From contig QPGO01000076.1 of the NCBI GenBank assembly GCA_008632985.1, positions 124,001 through 188,000 of the forward strand: DNA of 64,000 bases. Direction: 5' to 3'. The stretch is from Psammoneis japonica (lineage: Eukaryota). Positions within the stretch are counted from its first letter, which is position 1. Each line of letters opens with the position of its first letter. The notes under the pieces were generated by a model. The model was not told where the DNA came from. It saw only the letters and a program-made list of their open reading frames with translations, and made no database searches. This document shows positions 14,485 through 46,663 of the stretch, piece after piece. Both the position numbers and the translations under genes were made by a program.

Positions 14485-15339
14485 AAAATGTGAGCTGCAT
14501 CTCACGTCAGTTTATGCCGCATCTATCATAATGTTACAAAACCTGTGTCAAGCTTTTATTCGCTAGCAACGGAATCTCCATTGTGCCATTCGACTCAGCT
14601 GGCCTCAGATGTCTAGACACTTCAAAACCCACAGATTGTCTTGACTATGCTCGAGTCAAGATCGCAGTGTATCCGATTCAGTCACTGCAATGCAGAACAC
14701 AGACGCAATGTTGCGCAACTGTCCACAATGGCGGCTTTGGCCCCTCTAGAGCTTCTGGGTTGCATCTGCAAGGTGCCAGCAAGGCTCCATTAAACTGAGC
14801 ACCACACTGAGGGTGCCAGCCAGTCCATGCCTGTGAAAGCTGGCAGTGCAGTGATGCTGTCATCAGGCACATTTGCAAACTCCCTGTCATGCATGCATTG
14901 CCCACAGAAATGGAGGCAGTGGGTGTGTGGGGAAAATGTTGTGTTGCTGCACCTTCAAAGATGGCTGCAACTGCAAGCATCCAGTGAGGGAGAGCTGTTT
15001 CTTGCGCCACTTGTTGACCATCTTGCCAGTGACACATTCTCCTGGGTTTGGGGCAAAACATGGTCCAAACTGGCCAAACCTCTGGCATGAGAGTTGCAGA
15101 AGATGTGTGCACAAAAACAAGTCACAGATGCACAATGTGGCACCACTGACCATTTGTTCCATCAAAACACCAAGAGCTGCCTGAAGACCAGCATCACTGA
15201 CAGATCTGCCACAAAGGTCATGTGGGGTGCACTTCAATCTGGGTCAGCTCAGAGGTGCATGGAGGAGGCTGCCACATCTGCACCTCCAAGGATGGTCCAA
15301 TGCACAGGCAGTGCAACAACCACATTGTTGCTGACAATG

Positions 15340-16215
15340 ATGCAAGGCACATGGCTGGATGGTGGATGGCAGATGGCGGATGGTGGGTGGCAAATGACCA
15401 GTGCTGGATGACAGATGGCAGGTGGCAATTGGCAGATGGCAAGTTGCAGATGCTGGAATTTGGGTGCTGAATGGCAGATGGTGGATGGCAGACAGTGAAT
15501 GCTGGGTGCTGGACATTGTGGGTGCTTGATGGCAAATGGCAAATGGCGGATGGCAGATGGTGGAAATCAGATGGCAGATGCCGGGTGGCAGATGGTGGGT
15601 GCTTGATGGGTGCCATTGTCATTGCACGCAGTCCAACATGGGGCTGCTCTAATTTTTTGGAGTCTTTTTCAAGCAAAATCTTTTCTCCTGCTCTGCATGT
15701 GTGTGCAGCTGATGGTGGATGGCGGATGTTGGATGGCAAATGACAGATGCTGGATGCTGGATGGCAGATGTTGGATGCTGGATGGCAGATGCTGGGTGCT
15801 GGATGGCAGATGTCAGATGGCAGATGGCAAATGGCAGATGGTGGATGGCAGACAGTGGACAGTGGATGGTGGATGGCAGATGGCAGATGGCAAATGACCA
15901 GTGCTGGATGGTGGATGGCAGATGACAACTGGCAGATGGTGGGCTGTAGATGCTGGAATTTGGGTGCTGAGTGGCAGATGGTGGATGGCAAACAGTGAGT
16001 GCTGGATGCTGGATGCTGTGGGTGCTTGATGGCAAATGGCAAATGGCAGATGGTGGATGGCAGATGGTGGAAATCAGATGGCAGATGCCGGGTGGCAAAT
16101 GGTGGGTGCTTGATGGGTGCTGTTGTCATTGCGTGCAGTCCAACATGGGGCTGCTCCAATTTTTTAGAGTCTTTTTCAAGCAAAATCTTTTCTCCTGCTC
16201 TGCATGTGTGTGGAG
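15340..16215. repeat. Degenerate 7-bp (GATGGCA/GATGGTG) minisatellite organised as a ~510-bp tandem duplication
   Basis: Identical anchor 'caagcaaaatcttttctcctgctctgcatgtgtgtg' at ~15670 and ~16177; 'caaatgaccagtgctggatg' at 15391 and 15891. Confidence 0.85.
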
Positions 16216-19200
16216 CACGTCAAGCATTTTCTCATGCATTGTTTCCATTTGTGATTTCTTGTTCTTGTTTCCAAACAAACTTCCAATCAGCAATGTGCTG
16301 GACATCAAAAAATCATGTCTCTGTTGCTTGAAGACCAGTTGCTCCAGCGCAGCTTGCACAGCGGCACAATGCTGTGCACAGAAAGCACAGCAAAAAGGCC
16401 GCTGCCAACAACATGCCAGAAAACGGATTGTCCATGTGTCCAGAGGTGTGTCTTTCAGGTCAAATGTGTGCAGCATGTTGCCTGGGACTTGATGCATGTG
16501 TTCAACAACTGTGTTTGCTCATGAATTTTGTGCAGTCATTGGCTTGCACTTTGTGCCACAGTGCTCTTGAGCCATGTTTCTTGATTGGCATCCAATGAAC
16601 TCACTTCCATGGTCATGTGCAGTCAACTGTGGCAAAGGACATCTGCTTGGCCATGTCCATTCTAACAATCCAGCAATGGTCATGGACTCTTCACTTGGAA
16701 TTTCCACAACTTCAAACCACCCTGTTGCCAGATCAATCATTGTCGAACATTTCAGGACTGGGGATCTCTTCTTTCTCTTGTGATGCACCTTGTGTGGTCC
16801 AATGAGATCCACACACAGCGATTCCCACGGCGCCGTTTCTGCAAACTCAGGGGGTGATTGTCCACATTTCTTTTGTTTCTTTTTAAATTTTTGGCACGTC
16901 TCACATTTTGACACATGTTTTTGCATGTCATCATGCAGTGCAGACCACCACAAGTGTTGTGAGATTGTTTCTTCAGCCCTGTTTGTGCACTTTTTGCAAT
17001 GTCTTTGGTGCCACAATTTTTTCCTTGTGACACTTGAGCAACCAGTCTTGCTCGCCTCCCTAAAAAGTCTTTGCACAACATGTCATGTCCAACAATTTGG
17101 ACAGAATGTCTTCACCCCACTTTTGTTCAGCATCAAAAGCTTTTCATGTCAATGGAAAGACATTGTTGTGGGATTCAGGTGCAACTTTCTCAGCCAGATC
17201 TTCAATGCTGAGGTTTTCCATGTGGTTGATTTTTCCACAGCAAGTTGGCTGATTTTGTCTGCGATGATGTTCGCCTTGCCCTTGAGGCAAATCAATCCAG
17301 GACTGCATTCTTCTGTCATCAGTCACCAACACATGACTCTGTCCATTGTGAAGTTCTCATGGTTGAGATTCTTGTGATCCACACGCATTTTAATTGGTTG
17401 GCCAAACAGCACATTCTGGAATTCCTTTGGTGTTTCCACAGAGGACAGAAGTTCTTTTTTCGTTGCAGTGCAGCATGTCTGCACTCCATTTGGCTTGCAG
17501 CTGCAGAAAGCAACAGGTCAGTTGCTTTTTGTGCAATGGCTGCCCCAATTGAGAATTGCTCACATCAGCACATGTCTCAAAGGGTTTGCTGAAATTTGAG
17601 CATGGTGATGACAGATCTTTTGAAACAACTTGCTTTGTGTTTTTGAAGGCTTTTTGTTCTGTTTTGGTCCGTTGCGGCTTGACCTTGGATGAGATGAGTT
17701 TAGCCAGAGGAGCAAGAATGTGAGACTGCCAAGGCCACATGTCTTGACAGCAGCCAATCACACCAATGAAACATTGCAGTTCCTTGCAAGTTTTTGAAGT
17801 TGCGATCAAGTGGATCACTTCCACTTTCTTTGGCATCAGACCAACGCCATTGTGGGTGACATGGAAGCCCAGACAGCCCACTTTGGGTTTGATGAAGAAG
17901 GGCTTTTTGGCACTGACCTTCAGCCCGGCTTGTTCCAGGTGCACAAACACCATTTCAAGCTTTTTGAGATGGCCCTGAAAATCACCTTTTGCAAGACACA
18001 GCACATCATCAACATGAGTTCTGACAAACTCCAGACCTGTCATGAGCTCACTCACATGCTCATTCCCGCAGGTGGTCTGCAGGGGGCTCACATTTGCCCC
18101 AAGGCATGACAACAGCGCACAACCAATGTGCATGTGGAGCCAATTTGACACGACAGTGTCCCATGTTCAAATCCAGGGAAGCAGCACACATGAAACCTTT
18201 GAGTTTTTCCAGCATGTCTTGAACATTGAGCAGAGGAAATGGAGCACATGTCAACCTCTCACTCAGTTCACTGAAGTTGGACAGAAACTGAACTTGACCA
18301 TTTTGCTTTGGTCGAACAAAAGTTGGAGCTGTCCATTCAGAACAGCTCATTTTTCTTGAGACTTTCAACTTGCGCAGTCTTTCCCCTTCCTTTCAAGCAG
18401 TCACCTCCAAGGCTTGTGCGAACTTGTGGGTCAGGGTTTCCCATTTCACTTGCCTGGAGAACCATCAAAAAGGTTTTCAAATCTTTTTGGGAGGAAGTTC
18501 AGCTGCTTCTGCTCCTCTGGAGTAAGATGAGTTGCTGCTGCAGCTGCAGCATCAAGGTTGGCTGCATGATGATCTGAGTCAAGGATCCAACTGACTCTGT
18601 CATCAAGACCAATCATGGCATGAGATTCCCCAATGTGACCGGCAATTAACTTGAACACATCAGCGCCAAAGAGTGAGTCAACATTCTGCGTTGGTGTGGT
18701 TGCTTCTCCCCATTTGATTTCTTCATTTGCACAGTCCATGAATGACTTGAAGAAGAAGGGTTTTCATCAACATGTGCCGTTGTTTCTGTCATCTTGTGCC
18801 CATCAAATTCAGGCAAAGAGAGCGGCATTGAACAGCAACTGTCAGTCGTGAAGACAGCCCACCCTTGGTTTCCCAAGTTTTGGTGGTGAATTTCTTCATT
18901 CTCAATTTCTGCGTGAATTTGTGCAAAATTGTGGTTGACAATGTTCCGCTGTCAAGGAGAACATGCAGAGGCTTGTTCTTTGCTTTGCCTGAGCAATGAT
19001 TGCTGGACTGGCATGAATTGCTTTGGCCCTTTTTCTGGGCTTCCTGACATCTAGCAGCACATGAGACACCTCGAGCGATGCTGGCCATTCTTCAGAATTG
19101 CTGCATGTCATTTTTTCAAATTGACAATTCTCCTTGCTGAGGGTGTCAGAACTGCACTCTTTGCACTTTGTGTTGTTGTTCAAAGAACTCACCTTGAGTG

Positions 19201-20280
19201 TTTTTTTGAACTGCCTGGACCGCCATGGCATTCAGCTCTTCTTTGCAAGCAGCATTTTCATTGTTGCAACGCAACCACATGCAACTGCCATTTGAACAAC
19301 ACCTTTTTGGATCACATTTGCAGCTTCCATGGTGTTGTTCTTTTGCTGGTCGTTCAATCACCCAGCACTTGTCTGTGCATGGTCAGCAGATTTCTTGCAA
19401 CAGCTGCGTGCCACTTGATGGACTCAGATCATTTGGCACCAGATTGGCAGCCATTTTTGGAGCCAGGATTGGACCCATCTTTGGCTTTTGATCCAGGCTT
19501 GTTCCTGGTGTCAGCTTTGACATGGGCAGCATCAAAGACCTCCTCAGCAACCTCCAAAAGCTCTAAAAACTGGACCACCTTGTTTGGCGCATGTTTCAAA
19601 ATCTTGAAACCTTGGGCTGTCAACTGGCGCTGCCATTTGCAAGGTGCAAGATTGCAGAGGATGTCATTGAGCTCATCCTCCTTGATCTTCTGACCTTCTT
19701 CAAAGGGAGGACAAAGCTTGAGGTCTTTGTTGACTTCTTGCACCCAAGCAGCAATTTCTCGAATCTCTTCCTCATGCTCTCTGGCTTTTTGAGATTGTGC
19801 CGCAGATGACGCTTCTGAATCTGAAGTGTGCTCTTTGGGAAAACATGCCTGGTGAGGTGCTGTTGACATTTTTCAAGGTTCCTTTGCTCTTTTTGTTTTC
19901 AACATTCACAGCCCCATTCTCAAAAGCATGCAGAGCGTCTCCCTGTGAAGCGACATGCACACAAGACGGAACTCACCCAGTTGCTTCTTGACACTCTGAC
20001 CCACCAAGAGTTGCTTGCAGTTCTTTGAGAATTTGGTGCATTTGGGGATGCATTGCTTCTTGCAGTGCTCAACACTGATGGTGCAAGCGCGGCTGTTCTT
20101 CTTTCTTGGGTGAAAACACTGCTCCATCTTGAGGCACTGACTGGCTTTGAGCATCTTTGGTTCGGAGATTGATTCTTCCAATGGCTGTGGCACAATTTTC
20201 TCTTGCTTGAAGGAAAACTTGGCATCAGCAACATGAGGTGATGAAAGCTTCATTTTTGTCTTGGCACCTTCTGCGGTGTG
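16210..20280 (-). mobile_element. Heavily degenerated Ty3/Gypsy LTR retrotransposon body (gag-PR-RT-RH-INT); LTRs not identified
   Basis: PR 'VLLDSGT'; RT 'LDLNMGHC', 'PWGKCE', 'RTHVDDVLC'; RH-like 'FETCADVSNSQLG'; INT 'PWESLCVDLIGP', 'MIDLATGWFE', 'HDHGSEF'; Gypsy domain order; many stops and frameshifts. Confidence 0.92.
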
Positions 20281-20831
20281 CACACACGGCGCACTGTGCT
20301 CGAAGAGTGGGTGTGCAAACGAAAGCAGAGCGAAGCACGAAAAGTGAAAATTGTGAGGCTCAGAGCATTGAAAAGGCCATCAGCAGCAGGCACTTTCTGT
20401 TAAAAAAAAAAAACAAGCACTCACAAGAATCGCACGACTTTGCGCATGCACTTTACCTTCGACTTCCAATGTTGTTGCAGATGTTCAAAACACCCCACAC
20501 CCTTTGTTTGCTTGTCTTTATCACCCACGACTAACTCGAGACCCCGGCGTCTGTGCTGGACAACCACTATGACTCTCTACTAGCTAAATATATAATATGT
20601 TCATCCACAAGCCTTGGAAAAGCATTCCGAAATCTGAAAATGTCTGCTCTTGTTGCTCATAAATTCATACCTTCCCATGACATATCTGGGGCAAGAGTTT
20701 TTGTCCATTTTGCGTACATCACTTGCGAATTGGCTTACTCCGATGGTCATAGTCATTCAATGACATAAATCCCTCCACTCGCTGGTGAGTTCAGTCACAA
20801 TTTATTTCATCACGACAACACACAATGAACT

Positions 20832-22294: not shown

Positions 22295-22580
22295 ACACCA
22301 AAGGTCTCGTTGGGTGGGCTTCCTCGCCGGGGGCTGCGAGTTTCAAGTCACACGCTATTGCTACTAACTAGTTAGGGCCCTAAAGCATCAAGCGAATAAA
22401 TAGAAGAAGAACCATTGAGCTCTATCTACTCTACTAGTAGGACGTACAGCTCTCAAAGCCCTACTCTACTACCGTAGGGGGCCTATCTAGTAGCTACTAC
22501 TCCCCTTTTTGGTTTTGAGTCGGTGGATTCGACCAGCTGGTTTTTATCAGGAAAAGGCGGAAAAGGCAACATAAAAGTCC

Positions 22581-23084: not shown

Positions 23085-23228
23085 AACGAGAGTTCTGCAT
23101 TAAAAACGGGAGCATTCAACCTCGCTATGCAACTCTCTTCTCACGACTGATCATATTGAGAAATTCTCATAACAGTATGATGGCTTAGCGGTTATATAGC
23201 AATTACGATCACGCATCTTTCAGTACAG

Positions 23229-24229: not shown

Positions 24230-24529
24230 CACGGTTCTTGGTGCTTTTTATTCCAAACCCACCAACTGAAAAGCAAATACAACTGCACTACTGAATAGAC
24301 TTCTGCAACTTTAGCGTGCAGATGAGCTAGCTATCCTTCGCTACTACTGGAAGCTCAACGTCGTTGTTGGAGCGTCGGAGGGAGTTTTTCGTTTTTGATG
24401 TTGAATGTGTGACGCAGAAACTCGCGCGACATCGCGCGAGTTTCTCGAGTAAGGTTGTCATGGTGGCTGTGGATTTGAAATTTGGGGTGTGTCTCTTTTT
24501 CTGCAGCATACCAAAACAAGCCATCCACC

Positions 24530-26385: not shown

Positions 26386-27914
26386 ATTCTCCGCCTTATC
26401 TTTCAATTATTAGGCTCCTTCAGGTGACCACTTCATTCAATGCTCACGGATGGGTTTCGTAACGGATGCCGAGATTTTCGGCTGCGTCTATAGAATCTGA
26501 CGACTGAAATGCGCGCGCATCGTGATCGTTCCGAATGAGTCCGAATCGGGCGGGATGCTCGAGATGCTATCCCATTTACTCACAACCCGCTTCCTCCTTC
26601 CACGACAATTCAATCTTATCAAATAGAAATGAGCTGGGTTCAGCAGCAACAACAACATACGCCATGTGAACGTTTTTTCACGCCTTTTTTATTCATCAGC
26701 TTCATTTCTCACCATGTCGATGTGACGCGACGACCGACGAATCACCGTCATTGAGTGCTCTCTCGCTAAGTCCTCCACAATGTTCACAAAATTCACACCA
26801 AAAAAATGCCATTCAATTTACGCAAAGCCCTTTCACAGTCGCGTGTGAGCGCAGGTGAAGGACGGATCGAGTTGCATGGCTCAATGGGGGGCATGCCGTC
26901 AAAAGTCTGTGGTGCTCTGAGCCAACTGCGGCAGCTCCACTTCCTTCTTCAAATGTCAAAGGATGGTGGAAAAGACCTCGAGTCCCTTCATGCAATGCGG
27001 CTCAACTTGGCGCATGAGATCCAAGGAGCGTTTGGTGCTTTTGCAGCCAGCGACTTCAAAGCATGCCCAACCGACCTGATGAAGCACCCATCCTGTTTCA
27101 ATTGCTTGGGCAAGAGGGGGCAGAGAATGTCCGCAAAGCCTCACAGCAGCGGTGCTGCTGGCACACCAAGAAGGACATGTGGTGGTGCAAGCAATCCAAG
27201 GTGAATGCAAATGATTTTTGCACTCAAAAACAAACACTGTAAATGTCCTTGTTCAAATGCCGAGGCAACTCTGGGACAAACACGGGGATGACCCCGGTCG
27301 GGCGGTTGCTGCATTTTTTAGCTCAAATTTGGCCAGTTTGGCTCGTGATTTTCTGCTGAAAAATTGATTTGCCGCACTTGGAACATGGCAACAATGGTGG
27401 CTTCAGATGATCCAGGCAAGTGCAGTGGAGGTGGTCCATCTGCCAACTCTTGCTTGTTTTGCATTCCTCATGTGTCAAAGATGTCATGTGCATCAAAAGT
27501 TTGTAGACGGCATGCTGCGTTTTTGAGAGCAAACAGTGCTTGTCAGCCAGTGCCATTGCGACACATCCATGATGACACTCACGCTTTGTTGCTTTGTGTT
27601 TTTCAGGCAAGGCAAAGAAGTGCTGCAAAAGACTGAAAATACAAGATGAGAGGACTCAACAGAGTCATGCAAAGGCAATGGCGGCTGAGAAGAAGATGCT
27701 TTCAGCAGCCTTGCTTCAAGCCAGAAGTGACTCCAACTGCTGAGTTTCCAGTGCATGCTCTGAGTTGCACAAGTGTGTCCCATGTGCCAAGAGCCATGGG
27801 GAAAGATTTCCAATGGCAGACTCTGACTCGCCATTGGTGGGAGCCAAAGATGCCAAGTCACCAACCCTTCAATCCCTCCCAGAGTTGTCAAATGGTTTCT
27901 TTGATGAAATCATG

Positions 27915-29060
27915 TCAAACGGGCGGCAACTCACTGGTTTCTGCTGCGGCATCAACCGAAACTTTGGGAAGCTCTGTCAAGGATGGACGAGCGCCATTTT
28001 TGTTCCACACATCACACGGTGACCACAACAAAGCTGTGGTGTCAGCATCAAGTGGCTCCATGACGTTTGATGTGGACAGATTCAAGACTGTGATGACAGA
28101 CGCACCATGCATGTCAAATGAAGTCATGCAGCTGCCCACAAAAATGCGAGTCACTGTGCAACCATGTTGCTTTTCCAGACAGCCCAAAATGGAGTTGGTC
28201 AAGATTGACATTTCAAAATTAGATGTCCAACCCAAATTGTTGATGAGGACACAGAGATTGTCTCCTTTTTCAAACATGGGAATGACTGCTTCTGATTCAT
28301 TGACACGCCCATGCTTGTGAGTCGCATCAATCATCTCTTTTGCAAGTTCCTTGCTTGACAAAAGTGCAGACTGCTTTGCCCCAGCTTTGCCATGAAGTCC
28401 AAGACCAATTTCAATCATGTTGTCATCATCCAGACAATCTTTGACCGCCACTGCACCAGGCACCATGACTGCATCAAGCGCCACACCCAATGTTCCCATG
28501 TGTTTTGCAGTCAACGCAGCAAAGTTTGCCACACCCTGCAAAGATTTCCCTTCGGCAGCAGCCGCTCCTGCAATCTGGTGAACAAGGGTGGTTTTGGAAA
28601 TGCCTCAAGCTCCAGCGACACCCTTGGTTCTCTCCGAGGCTGTGTCATTGGCTGCAACCACCACTTGGCAGGAAACACCTTCCAAGCTGGCTCGCTCACA
28701 TGCCGCTCCAAAGCTCAAACAGTTGCCGACGCAATTCTTTGCCACTGGCAGAATGGGGCTTGTTTTCCCACACAAAGTGGCACAAATTGCAGCCAAGATG
28801 GCGGCAACAGAGGGAGATGCAAAGATTCCTCCTGGAATGGCTCCACTGAGCATGCCGTTGCCTGTCCATCCTGCATGACTCGGCTCATGTCCGCCACCAC
28901 CACTGCTGAAAATCTGAACACCCGCTCTGGCCTTCAAGTTGCTCTTGAGCACAACATGGTGATTTTTCAATTTTGTGAGGCAAGTCAGATGTTGCAACAG
29001 CAGACCAGCAATGAATTCATTGACAGCATCGGCTGGATCGTTCTTGATGATCATTTTTTC
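27915..29060 (-). pseudogene. Dihydroxyacetone kinase (DhaK/DAK1 domain) pseudogene inside a TpA-depleted island
   Basis: SGGGGHEPSHAG, GGIFASPS, KNCVGNCLSFG (cf. KNYTGDRLNFG), IEIGLGLHGKAG, VLINNLG, SCMTSFDMHGASV; frameshift near 28600. Confidence 0.9.
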
Positions 29061-30252
29061 GGCTTGGACGGCATGACACTTTTCTGCTGTGCGAGCTGAG
29101 CCAAGCAACAGCCAACCATTTTGCGCGAGGGTCAATCACTGCTGGGAAGACTTGCATGGACATTCTCAGCAAGAAGCTCCTTTGCACAAGGGCTGTCGCT
29201 CAAGAGCACGGAACAAAAGCTGCGGCCCAACCAACCAGCTGTGACCTGTCTTGTGAGTCGCAGCCGAGACAGCGAGTTCTTTGAGAATTGCGCTCACTTT
29301 GCTCTGCTTGTCAATGACCATGGCATCATTGCACACTTTGTTGGAGTTCTTGAAGATGCACATGCAAACGCGGAACAGGGGCCCACTTGTTGATGGATCA
29401 TCGCCGAGTGCATTTTGCTCTTGCTGGAGCGGTCGGCTGAGTGCAAGAGTCAGTTGAATGGAGTTCACCAGCGATTGGAGTGCACACAGTGTGATGGAAA
29501 AAACTGCTGTTGTGACAAGCAGAAAGCTTTCATCAGCTTCCACAGTTTGCCCACACCGCTGCGATGGCTTGGTCGCCCACATGCAGTCATCTGGGTTTGG
29601 TTTGACTTTCTCCGCACCCGCGGGACAAAATTTTTTGTCCCGGTGTTTTCTCCACTCAACTCAAGTGCAGCTGTCATTTCATTGTCATTTGTGTGTTTAA
29701 TCACACATTTCCTGGTGTTGTGTCATTTGAATGGAAAATGTTGCCTTTCCTCTTTGTCAGCGACTTCAGAAAAATGACTCGGCTTGACACATTTCGACCC
29801 ACGGACATTTGGTTTGGACACTTGCAAAGCAGGGTGCACAGCCGCCCAGCTGACAAAACCCATGCACAATGCAAAACTTTGAACAGGACCGAAGATTTCG
29901 GAAATTGTCGCCAAAAGTCACTCTTCCATGGTGTCTGCACACATCTCCAGCATGTGTGCACATCTGCCCGTCACTTTTTTGCACCCTGTTGCCCTGGTCC
30001 ATTCAGATGTGTCGTCCGGTTTTGCACATGGCACGGATCTCTTCGCAGTTGTCCAAACTGCAGGTCCAAAGTCTGTCCTGGGGCTTGCTGTGCCATTGGA
30101 CAAAACTGTCACGGTCGAAACAGCAAACATTTATTTGTATTTATTTGAATAGAAAAGTTTTGTTATTTATGTTGGCATTCTTCATAATGGAAAATGTTGT
30201 TTAAATACGGCAATCGCGCGAAACCGCATGGGTACGGAAAAAGTTTTAACGC

Positions 30253-30341
30253 GACCCAAAATTCCTCCGAGACCCAAAATTCCTCCGAGACCCAAAATTC
30301 TCCGAGACCCAAAATTCCTCCGGGACCCAAAATTCCTCCGA
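30253..30341. repeat. Tandem 18-bp repeat (GACCCAAAATTCCTCCGA) x5
   Basis: Directly visible; one copy is 17 bp. Confidence 0.9.
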
Positions 30342-31710
30342 ACAGAGAGTCACAGTGGAGCGCCGACCCACACTCGGCCTTGTCTTTTTGATGAGCAATT
30401 CATTGAAGACACGGATGTTGCTTTCAGGAGTCCGGATTCTTCGGCAAGGCCCTTGCTTGGTTTGGCCAGAAGCGGGGTTGTTGTTGGGTCTTTTCGCTTG
30501 GCGGCAAACCCGTGCTTTGGCGTGAGAAGTGTGCTCTGTCTTGGGTGGTGTGCTGTGTGTTTGATCTTTGTCGAGAAAGGCACCCGGCGCGGCACACCCC
30601 TTTGTTCCGAAGCACGGAGCAGTGTTTTTGCACTTTATGGTGTGTGCTGACAGGTTTTTCGATCTCTGTGACAGGTGTGCATGATACTTATGACTGTCTT
30701 GTTCTGTAAGAGTGGAATGATTGCCTCAGGGCAGATGCGAGCGACCGCATCATCATCGTGTTTCTGTGGTGATGTCGAGCACTAAGTCGGTGGGGTGTAG
30801 CCGTTGTATCGTCAAGGGTTTGGCTTTTCGGTCGGCTGTGGATATTCGGTACTCGCCATGGGAATGGCCACGACTCGAGCATTTGGAATCAATCCTTTAT
30901 CATCCTCCATGGCAGGTCGCCTTCTCTCTCGACGAGCACAGAGCAACAAGAAGAAATTCAAGGAATTTGACAAGAGCCCTCGCTTGAAACGCTTTCTATT
31001 AGCACTCGGAATCTCACTGTTTCATGCCTTGCTCCTGCACTTTACGCACTCCGTATTGTCGCAGATGGTGCCGTCACCAAAGGATGAATTGGCTTGGCGT
31101 TGTTCTGGAGATCAAACAAATACTTTGCTGGTCCTACGTTGTGAGTTTATCGTGTTTGTCGCCACCCAAACTACTTGGGAGACGCATTGTTTTGTTTAGG
31201 CTTGGCGGTCAGCGGTGTGGCGAGCTTTGGTTCCAACATAATTACACGTCACGACCAGCATTGGATTGTATGGTATTTTCTCCATAATGACTTTCCAAGA
31301 AAGCCGAGAAACTGTGGAAATGGACGATGAACAAGGACCTCCACATCGATTTTCCTGTGCGTAAAAAGCGAGACTTTTACTCCATCTTGGCGAACGCCAT
31401 GAACGGTTACATTCGCATCAAGTCTTCAATTGAGGTATTTCTCATGGTCAATAATAACTGTAGCAGTTCCGGTCGAGTACGAGAAGAAGGATGAACGAGA
31501 ACTATAACATCATGTATGTTGTACAACGGGTGATCTTGCGTTGTAGCTAGTAACTCTTACTCTAGAGAATCTATGGAGACGATACAGCTAGATAGTAGTA
31601 ACTCCGAATATTCTAGTCTAGAGCCAAGACTGAAAGTAGGAAAAAGAGGAGAATCAGTTTTTCTTTCAAAGCGACAGGATCGCCTTTGGGAGACGATGTT
31701 GTCTCGACGC

Positions 31711-36344: not shown

Positions 36345-36776
36345 TGCCCTGTGCATGCACCAGGCGCTGAAAAAGAAGATGTGTTGCGACTTTGTCGTTG
36401 TGAAAATTATGAGCTAGTTTAGAGTGGAGAAAATGGGATCGTGCGAACAGGGAATCTTGCCAAATCCCCATTCGTTCGCATTTGGATCGCATCAAATCGA
36501 TCGTGCGTTCGCATTGTGGATCGTGCGAATCAAGCCATCACGCGCCATGCACGAGTGATGTCATCGTGTGGAATCACGCCACCATCGTGGGCCAGACGAC
36601 GGGCCAGTGTGCTTCACACGGACGCTCTCTTAGCATCCTTCTGGAATTGCCCAAGACCTGGAGCCACGCCCTCCTGTGGTCGTGCTTCCCAGGCACGTGT
36701 TAACAATGCTGCGTTGCCACGCACAAGAGGCTCATGCACGGTCTCGCCGTGTTGTCCAGCAGCGAGGCATGCTGCA
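36345..36776 (-). repeat. 3' LTR of the Gypsy element
   Basis: Gap-free match to 41130-41561. Confidence 0.95.
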
Positions 36777-36815
36777 CACTCCCCCATGATCAGGGCCGTT
36801 AAGTGACAGGATGTC

Positions 36816-39800
36816 TCACTGGTGACAGGGCACAATCTGCCGTAGATTGCACGTGTCCATCAGTGCTCCGTTCTGGATGTGCAGCGTGCCATTGTCACAT
36901 GCACGGACAACTCTGGCGGGTCCTGCATGGCTGTCAGAACCGCACTTGGAGGATTGTTCCTGTTTGACAAGTGCCAATTGCCCTGCGGTGTGTTGACACT
37001 CCTTGCGTTTCTGATTTTCACGCTTGTTGTTTAAGTGGATGAGCTTCTGCTTTCTGGTTTCTATGTGCTTCCACTTGGCACGATGGGCAACAGACAAAAC
37101 CGCATCGCGTCCGAAGACCAATTGCATGGGACTTGCACGCGTGGTCGTGTGTGCCGCAGCTCTAACAGCGAAGGCTGCTGCAGAGAGGATGCCACTCCAT
37201 GGGTCATCTTCGTCCAGTTCCACATCCTGTGCTGAAAAGGAACGCACCATGTCACCAAGTGTCTGGTGTGCACGTTCCACTGTGGCATTTGCCTGTGGAT
37301 TCCGTTTGCTTGTGGGTTTCTTCAAAATCCCACAGTCATTTTTAATCATCTGGCTAAATTCTGCCACAAATTCTGTCCCACGGTCATGAACCACCTGGGT
37401 TGGCCACGGACATCTGCATGGCCACGTTTGTTCCACGACGTTTGCTGCGACGTCTGCGCGTTTCGTAGACACTTCTTTAATCTCGAACCACCCGGTTGCT
37501 GGGTCAATCATTGTGACTGCCCACAATTGCAAGGTGTCCTTTCCGCGTCTTTGAATTTTACATGGCCCCATCACATCTGTGCACAGAGTCTCCCATGGAA
37601 TTATCTCTGCGACCTTTTCTGGCAGCTTCCCATGACGCTGCGTTCGGCGTTTTGTCTTCTGGCATCGATCGCACTTGACGCACGTAGAATGCACCGTAGA
37701 CCTCATGCCAGGCCAATGGAAGTGCTGGGCAACAGACATTTCCGTGCGTGTCTCACCTGGATGACACAGTGTCTCGTGGTGCCATTCAGTTAGCGGAACC
37801 TGCAATGACTGTGGTGCTGCGATTTTGTCCTTATGACAGATTAACTGTCGTGATGACCCTCCCCCACGATGCGCGCGAATGGAGCAGTCGGACGAGACCT
37901 TGGCTCTTGAGAGTGGGCGCTTGTCCTTTTGTTGTGCTTTTTGAATGCGCTTGAAGCCAATGGGCAGAGATGGCTCATCTTGCGCGTCTGCATTAAAAGC
38001 TTCATGCAAAGGACGACTCGATGGAGTGTCTTTTACATCCGGATTAGCCTCGGAAGGCAAGCTGGGTGCCAGTCGAAGGCGACTAAGAGCGTCAGCGACT
38101 GGGTTGTGGGCACCCTCAACATGGCGTAATTCGGGACCGCATTCTTCGCACATCAACCGCCAGCGCATGACGCGCTCGGTGTTGAACACTTTGTGCGCAA
38201 GATTTTTATGATCAGCATGTGCAATTGTGTGATGACCAAGGAGAATCGTTCGAAATTCTTTCAACGTCTCCACAATGGCGAGCAATTCTCTCTCCGTTGT
38301 TGCACAATTTAATTGCACACTGTCAAGCTTTCTGCTGTAAAAGGCGATGGGTTTGTTGTCTTGGGATGCAACTGCTCCCAATTGACATTTAGAGGCATCG
38401 GCGTGCACCTCAAAGGGTTCACTAAAATCAGGATGTGACAACAAAACATCATCCGACATTGCCCGTTCAATGGTTTCGAACGCCTCATCTTCAACGGACG
38501 TCCACTCCCACTTAACAGTCTCGCTTGCGAGTCGTGTCAGCGGAGCCAAGACTTCAGAACGTCCAATCCACATGTCGCGGCAGCAGTTCACCATGCCAAC
38601 AAATGAACGTGGGTCGCGTTTGTTGGTTGGGGTCGCGATTCACTCAATGGCATCAACTTTGTCAGGTGTTGGTCGCATTCCGTCTCTGTTGACCAGATGA
38701 CCCAAGCACTCTAATTGGGTTTGACAGAAGTGAGATTTAGTTGCGTCAACTTTTAGTCCTGCTTTCTGGACCCTCAACAAAACTTCTTCAAGTTTGTTGA
38801 GGTGATCTTCATGGGTGCCTTTCGTCATGACGAGAAGGTCATCTAAGTGCGTTCGAACGAACGACAGATCTTCAAATGAGCCTGACATGCGTTCTTGGAA
38901 AATGTCTGGTGAATTGCACAATCCCATGGGCAATGCCTGCATCTCATGCTTGCCCCACGGGAAGATGAGCGTGCAGAGCTTCTTGCTGTCAGTGTCCAAT
39001 CGGATGTGACAATGGCCCATGTTTAAATCCAGCGATGCAGCCCACACAAAGCCTTCGAGCTTGAGCAGCACATCTTGGATGTGAGGAATCGGATGAGGCA
39101 ATCGCTTGATCCGTTTGTTCAGCTCTCTGAAATCATCAACAAAGCGTGCCGTTAAATCTTTCTTCGGTGTGATGGATGATGGAGCTGCCCATTGGGATCG
39201 GTTGATGCGTTTGAGAACACCGACACGCACTGGGCATTCTACTTCTTTACGCAGCGTAGCTTCGCACGCACGAGGCACTTCATGCGGACGAGCGTGGTGT
39301 GGTTCTACACCCTCCTTGAGTTGGATGTGGAAGGGTTCTCCCTTCCATTCTCCTGATGTCCCATCAAACAAGGACTCATGGCGTTTCAACAGTGCCAAAA
39401 GGTCATTTTGTTGAACTGCAGAAAGTCCCATTGCCCCTCGCGTTGTGTCCTCGAGGCAGGCCGGTGTGCACTTGGCGTCCAAAATGCACAAAATCCGGTC
39501 GGTTTCCGAAGATGAGGCTTCTGGATCTTGAAGATAGAAGGAGGTTTCCACCGCAGCATCTACGTGCCTCATTGGTGCTTCTCCATTGACCAATGGCCAC
39601 TCTGTCATCTGTTTGGAGAAGACAACATCAATGCCTTGCGTCTCCAGAATGTCACGCCCAACAATCACATCGCACTTGCCCAACTTTCCGTTGTGCACGT
39701 GGACGGCATGCTCAAGTTCTGCAGTTTTGGATGATTCTGGCAACCAAAATTTAATGGCACAGTCGTCAGACGCACTGAACGAGCCTGCTGCCGTGGTCCA

Positions 39801-41035
39801 GTTTGTCTCAGCCATTGAATGGCTTCGCAGACGTTTGCAGTGTCGACTGTCGAGTAGAGTGCTGCTGGTGCCACTGTCTGGCAGTGCCTCAACAGTTTGA
39901 GCCTTGCCCTTGCCATGTTTGGCATTCATGGCCACAAACAAGATTGGAGCAAGATGAGTCTTTTTAACTCGTTTGCGGGATTGGCCTGCAACACGTGTGC
40001 GTAATTCAATTGTTCATCAATGCATTCATCCAATGCATTGAAACTGCCTGCATCGTGTCGGCAAGTGTCCGAGTCTTCGGAATCACTTAAATTGAGGTCG
40101 CGGAAGTGATTGAGCTCCTCCTCGCGTGCCTTGCGCTTTTTCTGAGCGTTGGCAAAGAACTCCTCGACCTTCGATCCGATGAGAGCATCAATGTCTTCCT
40201 CATTCTGAGGTTTCATGTCAGGCTCACTGCCTTCGTCACTGGAATGTCCAGTCTTGACACGTTTCACGTGGGTGTTCGGTTGGGTCGTGATCAACGACTC
40301 AGAATTGTCCGTTCTACGTCCCCGCTTGCGTGGGACCCTAGCATGTTGGTCGCGGTTGCCTTCGGTGAGCTCGACCTGCTCGGTGCGCTCGCAGAACTGC
40401 ACCAATTCGGCGACAGCATGCGCCAACGGGTCAAAATTCTGTAGCGTCATGAACTTCTGCCATGCGTTCGGCACACCGCACTCGAACATGTCGCACAGTT
40501 CGTCATCAGGCAATGGTGCCGGTGTTTCTCCATCCTCCGTCACGGGTGGAAACTGAGAGACACAGCCGTTAATTTCAACAGCCCTTGCGACGTAGTCACG
40601 AGTGGAAACCTCTGCGGGCTTGCGCATGAAGCGCCGCAGATGACGCTTCTGCAATGGTGCCGCCCTGTGAGGGAAGACACTTTCCTTTAGCTTCGCGACG
40701 CATGCTGCGCACGCAGCATTGGTTTGGGATGCCTGCTTGTCAGCGGCATTGTCAAATGACGTCAGAGCATCGCCCTGTGGCAGGTCACGCACAAGGGCAA
40801 ATTTCGCTGGCCCGGTCGTGATGTTTTGTCCTTCGTGCACGCGATCCACGTTGCGCAGAAAGATTGGGAGTGTCTCGCATGCAGCCGTAGAAAGGTGCGG
40901 AATGCCCATCTCGTGCATTGGACTGTCCGGATCAGTGGGGTTGTTACGCAGCTTGAACGTCTGGTGCTCGCCCTGCTACAGCTCTTTCTTCTCCGGCCGT
41001 GCGAACGGAATCGGCGGCTCAACCCGCTTCTTCAT
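36816..41035 (-). pseudogene. gag-pol of the Gypsy element (stops, frameshifts, Tyr->Cys/His substitutions)
   Basis: PR 'ALPDSGT'; RT 'LDLNMGHCHI', 'RTHLDDLLV'; RH 'ADASKCQLGAV', 'ERELLAIV'; INT 'HHETLCHPG', 'DRGTEF', 'NPQANATVERAH'. Confidence 0.95.
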
Positions 41036-41129
41036 GGTCGTTTTAAGATTTGTCGGTCCTGCCAACATTTCGCAGTTTCGTTTCTGCAGATTTCGTTGCC
41101 TCGCACAACATGCGGGAGCAATGTCACTG

Positions 41130-41561
41130 TGCCCCATGCATGTGCTGGGCGCTGAAAAAGAAGATGTGTCAAGACTTTGTCGTTGTGAAAATTGTGAGCT
41201 AGTTTAGAGTAGAGAAAATGGGATCGTGCGAACAGGGAATCTTGCCAAATCCCTGTTCGTTCGCATTTGGATCGCATTAAATCGATCGTGCGTTCGCATT
41301 GTGGATCATGCGAATCAAGCCATCATGCGCCATGCACGAGTGATGTCATCGTGTGGAATCACGCTGCCATCGTGGGCCAGACGACGGGCCAGTGTGCTTC
41401 ACACGGATGCTCTCTTAGCATCCTTCTGGAATTGCCCAAGACCCAGAGCCATGCCCTCCTGTGGTCGTGCTTCCCAGGTGCGTGTTGACAATGCCACGTT
41501 GCCACGTGCAAGAGGCTCATGCACGGTCTCGCCGTGTTGTCCAGCAGCGAGGCATGCTGCA
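41130..41561 (-). repeat. 5' LTR of the Gypsy element
   Basis: Gap-free match to 36345-36776. Confidence 0.95.
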
Positions 41562-43989
41562 CTGACCCTGCTGCTGAACAACTTTGAAAACTTGCGCACC
41601 ACATCTGACCCTGCATCCTCAATTTTGAGCAGTCAGGCAATGACTGCACCATTGAAGAAAAGTGCCAATTAATGACTCACAACAGGGGGGGCACCACAAA
41701 GCCAGCAACACTCTCTCCAAGTGGCGGGCCACCTGAAATGAACTTGGCAGTTGTGTGCTGCCATGCTGTGCCATCTGCAAATTCTCATGACTGCCACATG
41801 GTGTGCTGGCATGTGCGTGCAAAATGACTTGGTGCACAACAACTTGCCAGATCCAGTGTCAAGCAAACATGTGATGGAAATCCACTGAGGTTGTGCCAGT
41901 CACTGACTTTCCAACAAAGAAGAAAATTGTGAGACAACCCACAACCCACATCTCATGTGCGCTGGGGCCAATGGACTGGCCCTGGCGCAACAGCTGTGGG
42001 CTCCTGCATGATCACACTTGCAGAGCTGCCACACTCAAAAGGTGCACAAATGTTGGCGAGTGCCCCTCAAATGAGACCAGCATTGGTTGGGCACCTCAAG
42101 TCCACACTGGCGGCAACCAGCAGGGCAAGAAAGCTGGCAGCTGCTGCGAGATTGGCAAGGTTCTTGACAGAGAGGGGTGCTGCAAGGAAGTGCTGGCAGA
42201 ATTTTGCAAAGCTCTTGCAATGGACAGCTTGTCCAGCTCATTTTTGGTGTGCCAGCACAAAGTTGTGCAGATCTGCACATGCAAGTTTCTGCGCATGTTT
42301 GTGCTGAAATTGTGGCAGTTGGGCCCATCAGCTCATTCAAATTTGTGCGGCAACCCACCCGCGCATGCCGCACTCACAATGATGATGACATAACGGCATT
42401 TTTTGTGCTCTGATGCCACCTTGCCACATCACATCTCCCTTGCCATGGAGTCTCAGAACATTGCTGACAACTGGTTCAAGAAAATGGCCAGTCGTGACCA
42501 AGTTGCAGGGGTTTTGTTTCGCCACAAAAAGACGCTGTTGGACCCATCAACATGACGCACAATGGTTGGTGTCGGAATTGCCATGATGCGCTGACCCTGT
42601 TTGAAGCATCTTTGGTGGTGTTGTGATGTTGGCATGCAGCATGGAAGACTCAGCAGTTCTCAATGTGGTGGCATGACGGCGGAGTTGGCTGGAGGCAAAG
42701 GAGGGCTCACCCTGAATGTGTGTGTGTGGATGCAAGAACCGCAAATGATGCATTGGCCCCATTGCTGGAAGTTGCCTCAGCAGCACTGTGGCAAACACAG
42801 CCGGCATGGATGACTCAGCAGAGCTCACGCTGGCGGCATGACAGCAAATTTGGTCTGATCCCAAGGAGGGCTTGTTCTGAAAAGAGGTTGCTCATCGAGG
42901 AGCTGTGGTTGGCTGCTTTGTTGTCCTTTTCTCCATGCAGCAGCAGCTTGGAGGGCTCTGCTTTGTGAGCGCAAACAAGCGATGCTTCCAAAAAGATTCA
43001 TGGTTGTGGACATTGACCAGTCACATGACAAATCTGTGACTGAAACAAAAATGCTGAAGAGCTGTCAAGTCGGCGGCATTGTCATCTTGTTGAATGAGCC
43101 AGAAGTCTCATCATTTGCTCTTCTGCTGCAGAGAGCATTGATTGAATTGAACAGCAACTTGACAGAGAAGACATCAGCAACATTGGTGGAGGAATTGGCT
43201 GTGGTTGTCATCTGAGAATGACTCAAAGTGGGTGACGCATGCCTCTGTCTGTTGCGACCCAACAACACGCGAACAGCTGTGCAGTCTGTTGAAGCTTCTG
43301 ACCAGCTTTGAAGGCAACACATTTTGTCTGTCAACAGACCAACCATCTGCACGTCATGCAACAACAGTGTTTTGGCATTTTTGCTTTGCACCCACAGTGT
43401 GTTGGCAACGCCGCTTGCTCTCTTGCAAACTCTCTTCATGTCTCGCGCCATTCTTGTGTTGGAGCTTGCAGAGCTCAAATTGAATTTCTGCTGGCACGCC
43501 AAAAATGAAACTCGGCAAGCTGTCCATTTGCCAAGCTGCTTGTGTGGGAAGGATCGTCCATGGACATCACAGCTGCCTGATGCTGATGATGATGCTCAAG
43601 CACAGCACACTGGCACTCTGCATTTGAGCCAGCAAGAGAGGCCTTTGCTGCTTTCTCTCTTTCCTTCCCTTGGCCCTGTGGCTCCAAACCTGATCCATGA
43701 GCTTTTGTGCAAAACCTGAGCTCCGCAGCTTTCTGCACACTGTGGCTTTTGTGCAAAATTGTGCCCCGCAGCTTTCTGTGCCCAGCAGCTTTTGTGCAAA
43801 ACCTGTGCCCTGCAGCTTTCTCCCTTGAGTGTGGGCAACTTTTGCAACCCTCCCTCTTGGGCACAGCATTTTTTGAATGTTGGCACACCAGCTTTGGCAC
43901 AAAACTTTGCATGGAAAGTTGTGTTTTCAAGCAAAAAATGGAAATTCTGAGTGAGTTTTGACCGCATGCAATGCCAGTTGCGCAGCTGC

Positions 43990-45770
43990 ACGTGCTTTTT
44001 CCATGTGACGAGCTCACGCATTTTTGACACAACTTTTGACACAACTTTTCACACGGGTCAAAGTTGTGTCACATTTTCAAAAATGCACATCCAGGCACAT
44101 TTAAAATTCCTGCAAGACTTCCAGTGCAAATTCTGCACAAAGAAATGGAGCCCAGGTGTGAATTTTGAAAGTTGTGCTGCACATTTTTAAAAACGCATGT
44201 GCGGGTTCTGTTGCACACAGAAGTCCAGTGGATCCTGCATCCTGCCACAATGTCAAAGTTGGGACATTTTCAACTGTGCACACCTGGATCTTTGCACAAC
44301 TCTTTTTTGTCCCACACATTTTTTGTGTCAAAAGTTTGTTTTTTTGCGAGGTGGTGTCGGCAATGAATTTGTGTCATCCAACAGATTTTGTGCTGGCAGG
44401 CAAAATTCACATCAATTTTGACATGCAGGTGGTGAAAATGGCAATTTCCCACAGACCCGTCGGCATGCCAAGTTTTGCTCCAAAGTTGGCACACCAAGAT
44501 TTGTGCTGAAGTTGGTGCACCAAAACATGTGCCAAAGTTGGCATGCCAAGTTTTGACCCAAAGCTGGCATGCCCAGTTTTGCTCTAAAGTTGGCATGCCC
44601 AGTTTTGCTCTAAAGTTGGCATGCCAAGTTTTGCCCCACAGTTGGCATGCCGTGTTTTGTGCCAAAGTTTGGGTGCCGGGTTTGCTCCAAAGTTGGCAGT
44701 GCCAGTTTTGTGCCAAAGCTGGCATGCCAAGTTTTGAGCCAAAGTTGTCATGTCAAGTTTTGCTGCAAAGTTGGTTTGCCAAGTTTTGTGCCAAAGTTGG
44801 CATGAGGAATTTTTCTCCAAAGTTGGCATGCCAAGTTTCACACCAAAGTTGGCATGCCAAGTTCTGCCCCAAAGTTGGCATGCCAAGTTTTGTGCCAAAG
44901 TTGGCATGCCAAGTTTTGGGTCTGCAGGAAATCATGTGTTCAAGCAAAAAACAGAGAGTCTGTGTGAGATTTGAGGGCCATTTGCAACAACAATGGCGCA
45001 GCCACATTGCTTTTCCTGTGTGACAAGCTTGCGTGTTTTTAACACAACTTTGGAACAGCTTTTGTCACAAATCAAAGTTGTGCCACAGTTTCAAAAATGC
45101 ACACCTGGGTGATGTCAGAATTCCTGCGAGACTTTCAGTGCAAATTCCACACTAAAAAAGAAAACCCAGATGTGCACTTTGAAAGTTGTGCCACACATTT
45201 TGAAAAATGTGCACGCGGGTTCTGTCGCATGTGGAAGTCTGCTGCATTCCTGCACAACACAAAAGTTGGGACATTTTCAATTGTGCACATGCCCGGGTCT
45301 TTGCACAACTTTTTTTGCCCAACACATTTTGGTGTCGTGTGTCAGCAACAAGTTTGTCTCATCTGACAGATTTTGTGCTGGCAGGCATGGCTTGCATCAA
45401 TTTTGATGTGCAGGTGGTGGAAATGGCAATTTCTCGCGCAGACCCTTTGCACCAAAGTTGGCATGCCAAGTTTTGCCCCAAATTTGGCATGTTGAGTCTT
45501 GCTCCAAAAAGGTGGTGTGTTGAGTTTTGCTCCAAAGTTGGTGTGCTGAGTTTTGTGCCAAAGTTGGCAAGACCAGTTTTGCTCCAATGTCGGCATGCTG
45601 AGTTTTGCTGCAATTTTTGCAAAGCAGCTTTTTCCCCAAAGTTGGTGTGACATGTTTTGTGCCCCAGTGTTGGCATGCCAAGTTTTGCCCCAAAGTTGGT
45701 GTGCCAAGTTTCCCCCCCAACAGTGGGCATGTCAAGTTTTGTGCCAAAAAGTTGGCACTTTTGCGCCACA
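43990..45770 (-). repeat. Two ~1-kb tandem units, each ending in a reverse-complement array of the 26-bp repeat (~44462-44915, ~45450-45760)
   Basis: 'tcaaagttgtg..ca..tttcaaaaatgcac' at ~44060 and ~45072; 'gtcaaagttgggacattttcaa' / 'acaaaagttgggacattttcaa' at ~44252 and ~45259. Confidence 0.85.
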
Positions 45771-46663
45771 AAGAGCTGGCACAACAGGGGATCCGTCACA
45801 AGCCTTGTCGGTCATTGGCGATGGCAATTTTCACAGTGGAGTGGTCCAAAAGATTGATCTGGCTGACCATCTTTTCCAACCAAATGTCACAATCAGAAAG
45901 ATGCATTCACAGTGTGGTGGTCAAGAGCTTGCACCCACCAACGGCCACACACTCGGGCCCCTCTTCTCTGCACACTTCTGGAGCGCAACAAGTTTCTCCA
46001 TTGACAAACCATTGCGGCAGGTTTTGTTTCATCAACCTTGGGTGTGTTTGCTTTTGCAGCCCACAACCTTGTGCAAACTGACAGAAGCTGCCCCCCCCCC
46101 CCCCTTCACTCATTTTTGTTGTGGGCCTTGGTCACTCCTCGCTGGAGGAGAGCGGCTTCTGCACCACCCTCCTGCTCTGGCTGTGCTTGCTCCTCATTGA
46201 TTGCAGAGCTTGTGGTTGTTGTCTTGTCTTCACCACAGATTCGATGAAGTGGGTCCGATTGACAAAGTTGTGTGCTTCTGCACGAGCAGTTTCCAGTTGG
46301 GCCGGACGAGCATTGAATTCGACAGGTTTGCGATGAGGAGTCCTCCTCGTCGTCCGCCACCCCCCGCGGCGCGCCACGCACGGCGCACGCAGCCGCAGCC
46401 GCAGGTTATTGTTGTTCCCACCCGTCGAACTCATCGCCCATCGCACATCAACGCTATGAAGAGGACATGGGAAGGCACGGGGAATGCTTTCCTATTCCCT
46501 GGATGTCGACTGATGAGACTCCATTCTTCTCTTTGTATGGCTTTGAGTGTGAATGTTGCGTGGTGTGCTAGACACTGCTGAGTTATTACCGTTTTTGCGG
46601 TAGACACCGCATAAAAATGAGACAAACGCGGAGGTTATTGCTTAGCCGTACCAACTCATCCTG

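Follow-up and report, generated by a model that had tools for sequence, protein, structure and literature searches.

Graded flank dependence of TpA loss in mobile and repeated DNA of the diatom Psammoneis japonica

In a 64-kb stretch from the diatom Psammoneis japonica (assembly GCA_008632985.1, contig QPGO01000076.1, positions 124,001 to 188,000 of the forward strand), the dinucleotide TpA (TA) has been nearly erased from retrotransposons and several other pieces of DNA. We call this whole stretch the window and count positions from its first letter. The window has a GC content of about 0.47, and in it normal gene-bearing DNA alternates with six sharp-edged, near-TA-free blocks. By dinucleotide counts, the flanking host DNA has an observed-to-expected ratio (O/E) of 0.44-0.65 for TA, depending on the region, and of about 0.8-1.0 for CpG. 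In the affected blocks, including a young Gypsy retrotransposon, the TpA O/E is 0.03-0.22, with CA and TG in excess. Open reading frames (ORFs) of the host encode an amidohydrolase, a class-C G-protein-coupled receptor, a cyclin, a UvrD-type helicase and a RING protein. The nearest named relatives of the cyclin are from diatoms, with Fistulifera solaris first at 55%, followed by Mayamaea, Thalassiosira and Cylindrotheca.

The young Gypsy (block G, 36345..41561) is a complete element with gag-pol on the minus strand. Its two long terminal repeats (LTRs), each of 433 bp (36345-36777 and 41130-41562), share 93.3% identity, and the element has a 4-bp duplication of its target site, CTGA. It is partly mutated, with 64 TA left (TA O/E 0.22) and CpG near intact (O/E 0.91). 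This element inserted into a satellite-bearing repeat (block C) and lies between its heavily mutated left part, C1 (34691..36344), and its right part, C2 (41562..46407; 8 TA, O/E 0.03), both given without a strand. A 26-bp satellite occupies 35024-35577 in C1 and two arrays in C2, at 44462-44918 and 45446-45757, in inverted orientation relative to that of C1. These arrays hold about 21, 18 and 12 units, respectively, and the unit variants are mostly CG/TG/CA alternations. We considered the satellite units as a source of ancestral TA sites and rejected them, because TG/CA variation there is inseparable from CpG decay.

An older Gypsy-type retrotransposon (block A, 14680..20401, minus strand) retains a pol remnant at about 16160-18990 and a gag-like segment at about 19430-19900. 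Only 14 TA are left in its 5721 bp (TA O/E 0.04), alongside O/E values of 0.21 for CG, 2.02 for CA and 1.68 for TG. An LTR pair was looked for in this block and none was found. Its interior contains a 350-bp internal duplication (15337-15709 versus 15838-16216, 87% identity) and a tandem array at 15711-16071 with 7-bp (GATGGCA-like) and 14/21/42-bp periods. Two further blocks, again without a strand, are a short TA-poor stretch (D, 50143..50824), in which depletion is less clean than in the others (6 TA in 50100-51000), and a TA- and CpG-depleted block with 2 TA in 2 kb (E, 60007..62099). ORFs in blocks C, D and E have no Pfam match, and tblastn against 78 Gypsy loci gave no identity for these blocks.

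The remaining TA-free block (B, 26819..30132, minus strand) holds a truncated copy of a diatom-type dihydroxyacetone kinase gene, comprising the Dak1 domain only (27918-29072). The Pfam matches to Dak1 (E=2e-39 and 7e-30) are supported by alignments to DhaK/DAK entries of the PDB, and the best named matches are diatom proteins of 51-55% identity (Seminavis robusta at 55%, then Nitzschia and Fragilaria). Homologues align with this minus-strand copy up to residue ~385-424 of ~590, and an in-frame stop at 28605-28607 stands where homologues have a conserved Arg. The kinase copy is as TA-free as the transposons, so a host-type gene fragment has been treated in the same way as they have. Just outside block B, a 389-bp stretch at 30247-30636 is also TA-free and includes five copies of an 18-bp tandem repeat (30253-30341).

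The LTR pair of the young Gypsy provides a record of how TA was lost. The two copies differ at 29 positions, of which 24 lie in TA-derived dinucleotides and 4 are CpG transitions; the last, a transversion, is the single non-TA, non-CpG difference in 433 bp. Among 17 TA-derived sites, 14 have changed in at least one copy. Ten of these pair TG in one LTR with CA in its partner, and four pair TA with TG or CA. Three sites of the context YTAR (Y, pyrimidine; R, purine) remain TA in both LTRs, and 28 CpG are intact in both. Because the LTRs were identical at integration and now differ at TA sites, each LTR has been hit independently and in both directions.

Protein-coding positions show the same changes. 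We aligned the pol regions of both Gypsy elements to 120 homologues of 48-60% identity; in a large protein collection searched for same-family proteins, the best match was only 59% identical. In the young Gypsy, 27 conserved Tyr codons have become Cys in 11 cases and His in 12, and 1 has been kept. The old Gypsy has turned 14 of 27 into Cys (TGY) and 7 into His (CAY). Pooled over these two elements and block B, Tyr codons were lost to TG 26 times and to CA 20 times. The loss reaches the catalytic region, and Tyr makes up 0.2% of the young pol compared with a median of 4% in homologues. In conserved codons starting with A, this A has become G in 17 of 20 cases after T and in 6 of 96 after A, C or G. 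A runs test of direction gave 13 runs against 12.5 expected in the young element and 13 against 10.3 in the old one, so there are no strand-coordinated runs, and surviving TA are evenly spread (Kolmogorov-Smirnov test of positions, p=0.66). The depletion thus reflects true mutation of DNA already in position: the changes are A:T-to-G:C transitions restricted to TpA, falling on both strands about equally as independent single-site events.

The spectrum of polymerase eta consists of mutation at A in TA and AA with some transversions. We considered WA mutagenesis by this polymerase and rejected it, as A-to-G change after A was seen at 0 of 23 positions and transversions account for 1 of 29 LTR differences. 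ADAR hyper-editing, for its part, favours UAG. If an ADAR-like enzyme had hyper-edited double-stranded RNA of the retroelements, reverse transcription could have fixed the changes before integration. Like ADAR editing and the sexual-stage A-to-I mRNA editing of fungi, the process seen here has an A-to-G outcome with U/T before the edited A, and two of the affected blocks are retrotransposons. A 5' U preference of such enzymes is also cited in a 2026 preprint on the chlorarachniophyte Bigelowiella natans (bioRxiv 10.64898/2026.01.13.699255). Unlike those RNA-level, strand-coordinated systems, however, the present one affects both DNA strands equally and without runs, and at 10 sites the two LTRs of a single element have changed independently and in opposite directions. 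The truncated kinase copy and the satellite arrays are as strongly mutated as the retrotransposons, and TAG and TAA (UAG and UAA in RNA) are the most resistant contexts. An ADAR-like origin is therefore extremely improbable.

The depletion was also not brought in with the elements. Among 78 related Gypsy loci from metagenomes, TA O/E ranges from 0.56 to 1.06 with a median of 0.75, and none is depleted, which argues that the TA-poor composition is not inherited. A contig of one sequencing run (X1) matches 288 bases of TA-free C1 without a mismatch; X1 may itself be the source of the assembly. We consider an assembly artefact unlikely as the cause of TA loss, and pre-integration RNA editing, inherited composition and selection are excluded as causes. 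In the same run the family of the young Gypsy is highly repeated, with 6714 contigs matched and a word depth of about 1e4, compared with 28 for the flank. Differences between the X1 contigs and the copy in the window are transitions at 520 of 547 places. A second run, X2, covered only 4 of 30 bins of this element.

Loss of TA is confined to particular regions, with sharp edges at the depleted blocks, and it is cumulative. The older blocks A, C and E are saturated and CpG-depleted, and the partly mutated young Gypsy is nested inside C. This younger element has lost about 80% of its estimated TA while its CpG is nearly intact. Methylation-driven CpG decay likewise yields TG and CA and is confined to repeats, and it is present in the older blocks (CpG O/E 0.2-0.4). 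Compared with the TpA process it is much slower: in the young LTRs 28 CpG are intact and 4 differ, whereas 14 of 17 TA-derived sites have changed. The loss of TpA is far faster than background mutation or CpG decay.

TA sites are not all lost at the same rate, and the bases on both sides matter. Of the 1678 TA in 38 kb of host background, fewer belong to YTAR (249, 15%) than to any other class, and RTAY has the most (540, 32%). Among survivors in the young Gypsy (n=64), there are 36 YTAR, 14 YTAY, 14 RTAR and no RTAY. The 14 survivors of block A are 12 YTAR and 2 RTAR, and the 8 of C2 are 7 YTAR and 1 RTAR. Pooled over the five heavily mutated blocks (A, B, C1, C2 and E), YTAR makes up 23 of 32 survivors. 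These distributions depart from the host proportions (chi-square p=1e-20 in the young Gypsy; p=4e-18 when the five heavy blocks are taken together). An earlier note, based on manual counts, had described this skew. Its 7 of 8 YTAR for 41562-46400 is the same on recount, its 13 of about 14 for 14680-20400 comes down to 12 of 14 with the skew standing, and its absence of RTAY from the young Gypsy is confirmed (0 of 64) with the number of survivors corrected from about 55-60 to 64.

Estimates of survival require ancestral frequencies. The present analysis covers one 64-kb window, with small direction samples. We took as baseline the TA classes of the 78 related elements (RTAY 27%, YTAY 28%, RTAR 22%, YTAR 24%; 61 TA per kb). 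Against this baseline, survival is not uniform across the classes once normalised to ancestral frequencies (chi-square p=3e-10 for the young Gypsy and p=1.5e-5 for block A). By this estimate, the young Gypsy has kept 0/86 RTAY, 14/88 YTAY, 14/69 RTAR (28/157 for these two mixed classes together) and 36/75 YTAR. In block A, estimated survival is 0 for RTAY, 0 for YTAY, 0.03 for RTAR and 0.13 for YTAR. Broken down by strand-symmetric tetranucleotides, survival in the young element is 0 for ATAC/GTAT, ATAT and GTAC, 0.05 for ATAG/CTAT, 0.09 for ATAA/TTAT, 0.20 for both GTAA/TTAC and CTAG, 0.38 for CTAC/GTAG, 0.44 for CTAA/TTAG and 0.73 for TTAA. The ten tetranucleotides rank alike in the two Gypsy elements (Spearman 0.90, p=4e-4), and the host-background baseline yields the same order of survival as the related elements. 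Because the baseline comes from distant relatives or host DNA, absolute survival figures are rough.

Sites whose ancestral state is documented give the same order free of any baseline. In the LTR copies of the young Gypsy, survival is 8/14 for YTAR, 2/12 for the mixed classes and 0/6 for RTAY. Across all documented ancestral sites in this element, 0 of 23 RTAY survive compared with 10 of 21 YTAR (Fisher p=1.4e-4); the 23 RTAY sites comprise 13 Tyr codons, 6 LTR copies and 4 codon-boundary sites. The graded order proposed in the earlier note, with RTAY lost first and YTAR last, is thus borne out by survival in the young Gypsy, in block A and in the LTR copies. As elements age, RTAY disappears first and YTAR last. 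YTAR is slowed and not exempt, with about half of such sites gone in the young Gypsy and about 87% in block A. The rate of TpA loss is set by both neighbours: it is highest at ATAT, GTAC and ATAC/GTAT, intermediate at sites with one good flank, and lowest at TTAA, followed by CTAA/TTAG.

Could the skew arise in some way other than graded loss? TA might have been lost evenly and YTAR regained by C-to-T change at CA and TG; the pattern might also be a sequencing or assembly artefact, or inherited composition. Given how plentiful CA and TG are in the blocks, a certain number of new TA is bound to form. New TA would be YTAR in only about 25% of cases (959 of 3861 CA/TG sites in the heavy blocks), against 23 of 32 observed, and the three YTAR sites that are TA in both LTRs also speak against regain. 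The exact match of the X1 contig to 288 bases of C1 argues against an artefact, with the proviso that X1 may be the source of the assembly, and inherited composition is contradicted by related elements elsewhere, which are not TA-poor. As for design, the replacement of Tyr by Cys or His at catalytic positions shows decay. Taken as a group, these explanations are very improbable.

The direction of change bears on whether one flank or both flanks set the rate. The earlier note had proposed an asymmetric motif, TAY or RTA on the edited strand, and its strand logic is correct: RTAY would then be a favourable target whichever strand is edited, and YTAR would offer none. A strictly one-sided T-A-Y motif of the TadA kind would explain everything by this logic, with RTAY open to attack on both strands, mixed sites on one and YTAR on none. 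The survival order RTAY < mixed < YTAR is as this predicts. We limited the direction count to sites where both outcomes change the protein, namely Tyr codons in YTAY and Ile-ATA codons in RTAR context. The former went 15 to TG and 8 to CA, and the latter 5 to CA and 2 to TG, so direction leans as predicted. As the earlier note had observed, Tyr-to-His changes do occur in YTAY context, and they are common (8 of 23 Tyr codons). Pooled over these mixed sites, the edited A is followed by a pyrimidine in 20 of 30 cases (binomial p=0.10). In RTAY context, Tyr codons went 11 to TG and 12 to CA. Codon-boundary sites show a contrast in the same sense, with TG 4 and CA 19 in RTAR compared with TG 15 and CA 19 in YTAY (Fisher p=0.047, with ancestral C among the CA counts).

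When fitted to survival in the young Gypsy, a one-flank model predicts a direction bias of 79%, against the 20/30 observed (P=0.08), and about 5.7 surviving RTAY in this element, against the 0 seen (P=0.0035). A two-flank model, in which the rate per strand rises about 2.2-fold with a purine 5' of T and about 3.8-fold with a pyrimidine 3' of A, fits better (likelihood-ratio test 9.9, 1 df, p=0.0017). These fits rest on estimated ancestral counts and small direction samples, and the model comparison inherits the baseline from distant relatives and host DNA; they are indicative and not exact. Two further observations count against a strictly one-sided motif. At four YTAY sites of the LTR pair, one copy has TG where its partner has CA; and YTAR does not escape loss, having gone from about half of its sites in the young Gypsy and from about 87% in block A. 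We judge such a motif improbable as the whole explanation. With a weak direction bias and a better two-flank fit, the one-sided interpretation is only partly supported. The graded order expected of the asymmetric motif stands and strict one-sidedness fits poorly. The leaning of the earlier note to TAY over RTA holds for the stronger half of the motif (3.8-fold against 2.2-fold), with the edited strand matching in only 20 of 30 cases. The data lean towards T-A-Y as this stronger half, and R-T-A-Y is the better notation for the preferred site.

In the five heavy blocks, the excess of YTGY plus RCAR (474) is far larger than that of YCAY plus RTGR (168). This points in the same direction as the T-A-Y preference, and it is confounded by CpG decay. 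The gap is wider than the TA direction bias can account for, and CpG decay in these old blocks looks biased in direction. CpG survival there is poorest where a pyrimidine precedes the C on both strands, with 56 of 230 expected for YCGR compared with 95 of 226 for RCGY, which suggests that C-to-T change is favoured at YCG in old blocks.

A different chemistry has to be weighed as well. The modified base may be thymine, for instance through oxidation to 5-hydroxymethyl- or 5-formyl-uracil and mispairing of these with G, or a reader of the TA step may act with a flank effect that comes from duplex mechanics, the alternating purine-pyrimidine RTAY opening or flipping more easily than YYRR sequences such as TTAA. 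A duplex-level effect predicts near-symmetric direction, which is what we see (26 TG to 20 CA in Tyr codons, and 20:10 by flank), and susceptibility in the order ATAT/GTAC > mixed > CTAG > TTAA tracks purine-pyrimidine alternation. The palindromic TA would, moreover, hide the strand on which the chemistry takes place. The modest lean to an A followed by Y is unexpected from a purely symmetric effect, and the near absence of anything but transitions (1 transversion in 29 LTR differences) fits deamination well. Thymine-directed or duplex-level mechanisms are in our view unlikely.

We consider it likely that the window records flank-dependent, in-place hypermutation at TpA of repeated or silenced DNA by a deaminase-type defence in a diatom nuclear genome. 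The affected DNA comprises the two Gypsy retrotransposons, the satellite-bearing repeat, the truncated host-type gene copy and two further pieces, and these underwent DNA-level change from TpA to TpG or CpA after arriving at their present place. The most likely agent is a nucleic-acid adenine deaminase that would act on either DNA strand and convert A to inosine, which is read as G. Its preferred site may be written 5'-(R)T-A-(Y)-3', with the 3' pyrimidine probably weighing roughly twice as much as the 5' purine. Such an enzyme may defend the genome by targeting heterochromatic or repeated DNA, and the process could be of the same kind as in Bigelowiella natans.

Several points weigh against this explanation. 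Its agent is deduced from a mutational signature, and because TA is palindromic, the sequence does not distinguish deamination of A from a reaction at the T facing it. An R-T-A-Y motif is not a feature of known adenine deaminases. An amphioxus ADAT2 acting on DNA is reported to prefer GAA for adenine and TCG for cytosine (PMC10354150), and the A-to-I editing of fungi is described as readily editing UAG and UAA (PMC11156358). The direction bias linked to the flanks is weak (20:10, p=0.10), and the direction of product excess in the young Gypsy is only about 55% and depends on the baseline. The ancestral frequencies are estimates based on host DNA or on relatives with only 49-64% protein identity, and not on a consensus of the family itself. 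The trigger, finally, may be repetition, foreignness or chromatin state.

Among known systems, deaminases of tRNA offer a lead to the enzyme. The natural TadA site is U-A-C, with a 3' pyrimidine, and a purine at -2 is not part of this tRNA site. The DNA process resembles TadA, ADAT2-ADAT3 and the TadA-derived adenine base editors in that the target A is preceded by T/U. The likeness to the UAC substrate drawn in the earlier note is useful as a lead only: the T at -1 agrees with it and a pyrimidine at +1 is favoured in survival, but the edited strand follows that pyrimidine in only 20 of 30 cases (p=0.10), and the purine at -2 also counts here. That an ADAT2 can deaminate adenine in DNA has been reported (PMC10354150).

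The closest parallel is found in Bigelowiella natans. According to the preprint, mutation-accumulation lines of this alga undergo A>G/T>C changes only at TpA, at about 1000 times background (bioRxiv 10.64898/2026.01.13.699255; Mettrop et al. 2026). The targets given there are an integrated giant virus and a virophage, and the genome is described as having 124 TpA-poor, CpA+TpG-rich clusters enriched in reverse transcriptase (RT) and DDE domains; its authors propose an ADAT2-like DNA adenine deaminase (bioRxiv 10.64898/2026.01.13.699255). Several features of that process, as reported, have counterparts in the diatom. The A>G/T>C transitions are confined to TpA (24 of 29 LTR differences; 17/20 versus 6/96), TpG and CpA products arise on both strands (26:20 in Tyr codons; 10 LTR sites), and the changes are confined to foreign or mobile regions and fast relative to the rest, here by comparison of LTRs and not as a rate per generation. 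The two cases differ in host, Bigelowiella being rhizarian and the diatom a stramenopile. They differ in extent, since TA loss is saturated here (O/E 0.03-0.04) and stands at 0.45 in the viral region described for Bigelowiella. They also differ in targets, which in the diatom are LTR retrotransposons, a satellite-bearing repeat and a host-type gene fragment. The main text of the preprint nowhere uses the words 'context', 'flank', 'trinucleotide' or 'tetranucleotide', so it gives no flank hierarchy.

Repeat-induced point mutation (RIP) of ascomycetes consists of C-to-T change mainly at CpA, so that TpA is enriched and the DNA turns AT-rich. Like the process described here, RIP is an in-place transition hypermutation with a dinucleotide preference; it stays within repeats, ends abruptly at their borders and ruins coding capacity, and duplicated host genes can be affected too. 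Unlike RIP, the diatom process destroys TpA (O/E 0.03-0.22), enriches CA and TG and leaves the DNA GC-richer. RIP is a functional analogue with opposite chemistry. RIP is triggered by sequence duplication; in the diatom, the contigs of run X1 show the family of the young Gypsy to be present in very many copies. In the literature searched for TpA-depleting hypermutation, only papers on fungal RIP and the Bigelowiella preprint turned up, judged from their listings, and within the same scope no report of TpA hypermutation in a diatom was found.

The diatom case probably represents the same recently described kind of TpA hypermutation as that of Bigelowiella, with the flank hierarchy as a new and testable fingerprint. 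In the literature searched, TpA-directed, GC-raising hypermutation of mobile DNA had previously been described in that one chlorarachniophyte preprint. A saturated signature in a diatom extends the process to a major and genetically tractable algal group, and shows it on LTR retrotransposons and a host-type gene fragment, where it is far faster than CpG decay. The flank hierarchy, in which ATAT, GTAC and ATAC are fastest and TTAA slowest and both flanks count, offers a biochemical fingerprint for candidate deaminases and could act as a clock for the relative age of repeats. More tentatively, diatoms may possess a dedicated defence DNA adenine deaminase or other TA-directed editor with an R-T-A-Y preference that is homologous to the Bigelowiella system, a possibility that we would not yet bet on. 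If it were true, an ancient RIP-like defence of opposite direction would span the SAR (stramenopile, alveolate and rhizarian) supergroup, acting on silenced repeats and stray gene fragments, and the signature that it leaves could guide a search for the enzyme and help to estimate the age of repeats.

The process also has a consequence for annotation. Erasure of the stops TAA and TAG, together with nearly all Tyr codons, makes dead elements look like long open reading frames. TA-free blocks such as 14680-20400 carry long open frames in several frames on both strands, and these could be mistaken for genes. The pol of the young Gypsy is interrupted by just one in-frame stop, a TGA at 38640-38642 (minus strand). 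At position 38642, 99% of the depth of related X1 contigs carries the base that gives CGA, which implies that this stop arose by CpG deamination and not by the TA process. Among the 120 homologues of the Gypsy pol, one from an ENA metagenome (P0074) shows His or Cys in 7 of the 28 columns where Tyr is conserved and keeps 15 Tyr, compared with at most 3 such replacements in the other homologues; it may be a relative from another organism that has been partly hypermutated. In the host DNA, a 31-N assembly gap at 52235-52265 shortly precedes the two ORFs of the UvrD-type helicase (52425-53729 and 53746-55632). The plus-strand ORFs 50968-52173 and 51860-52312 are noted at this gap.

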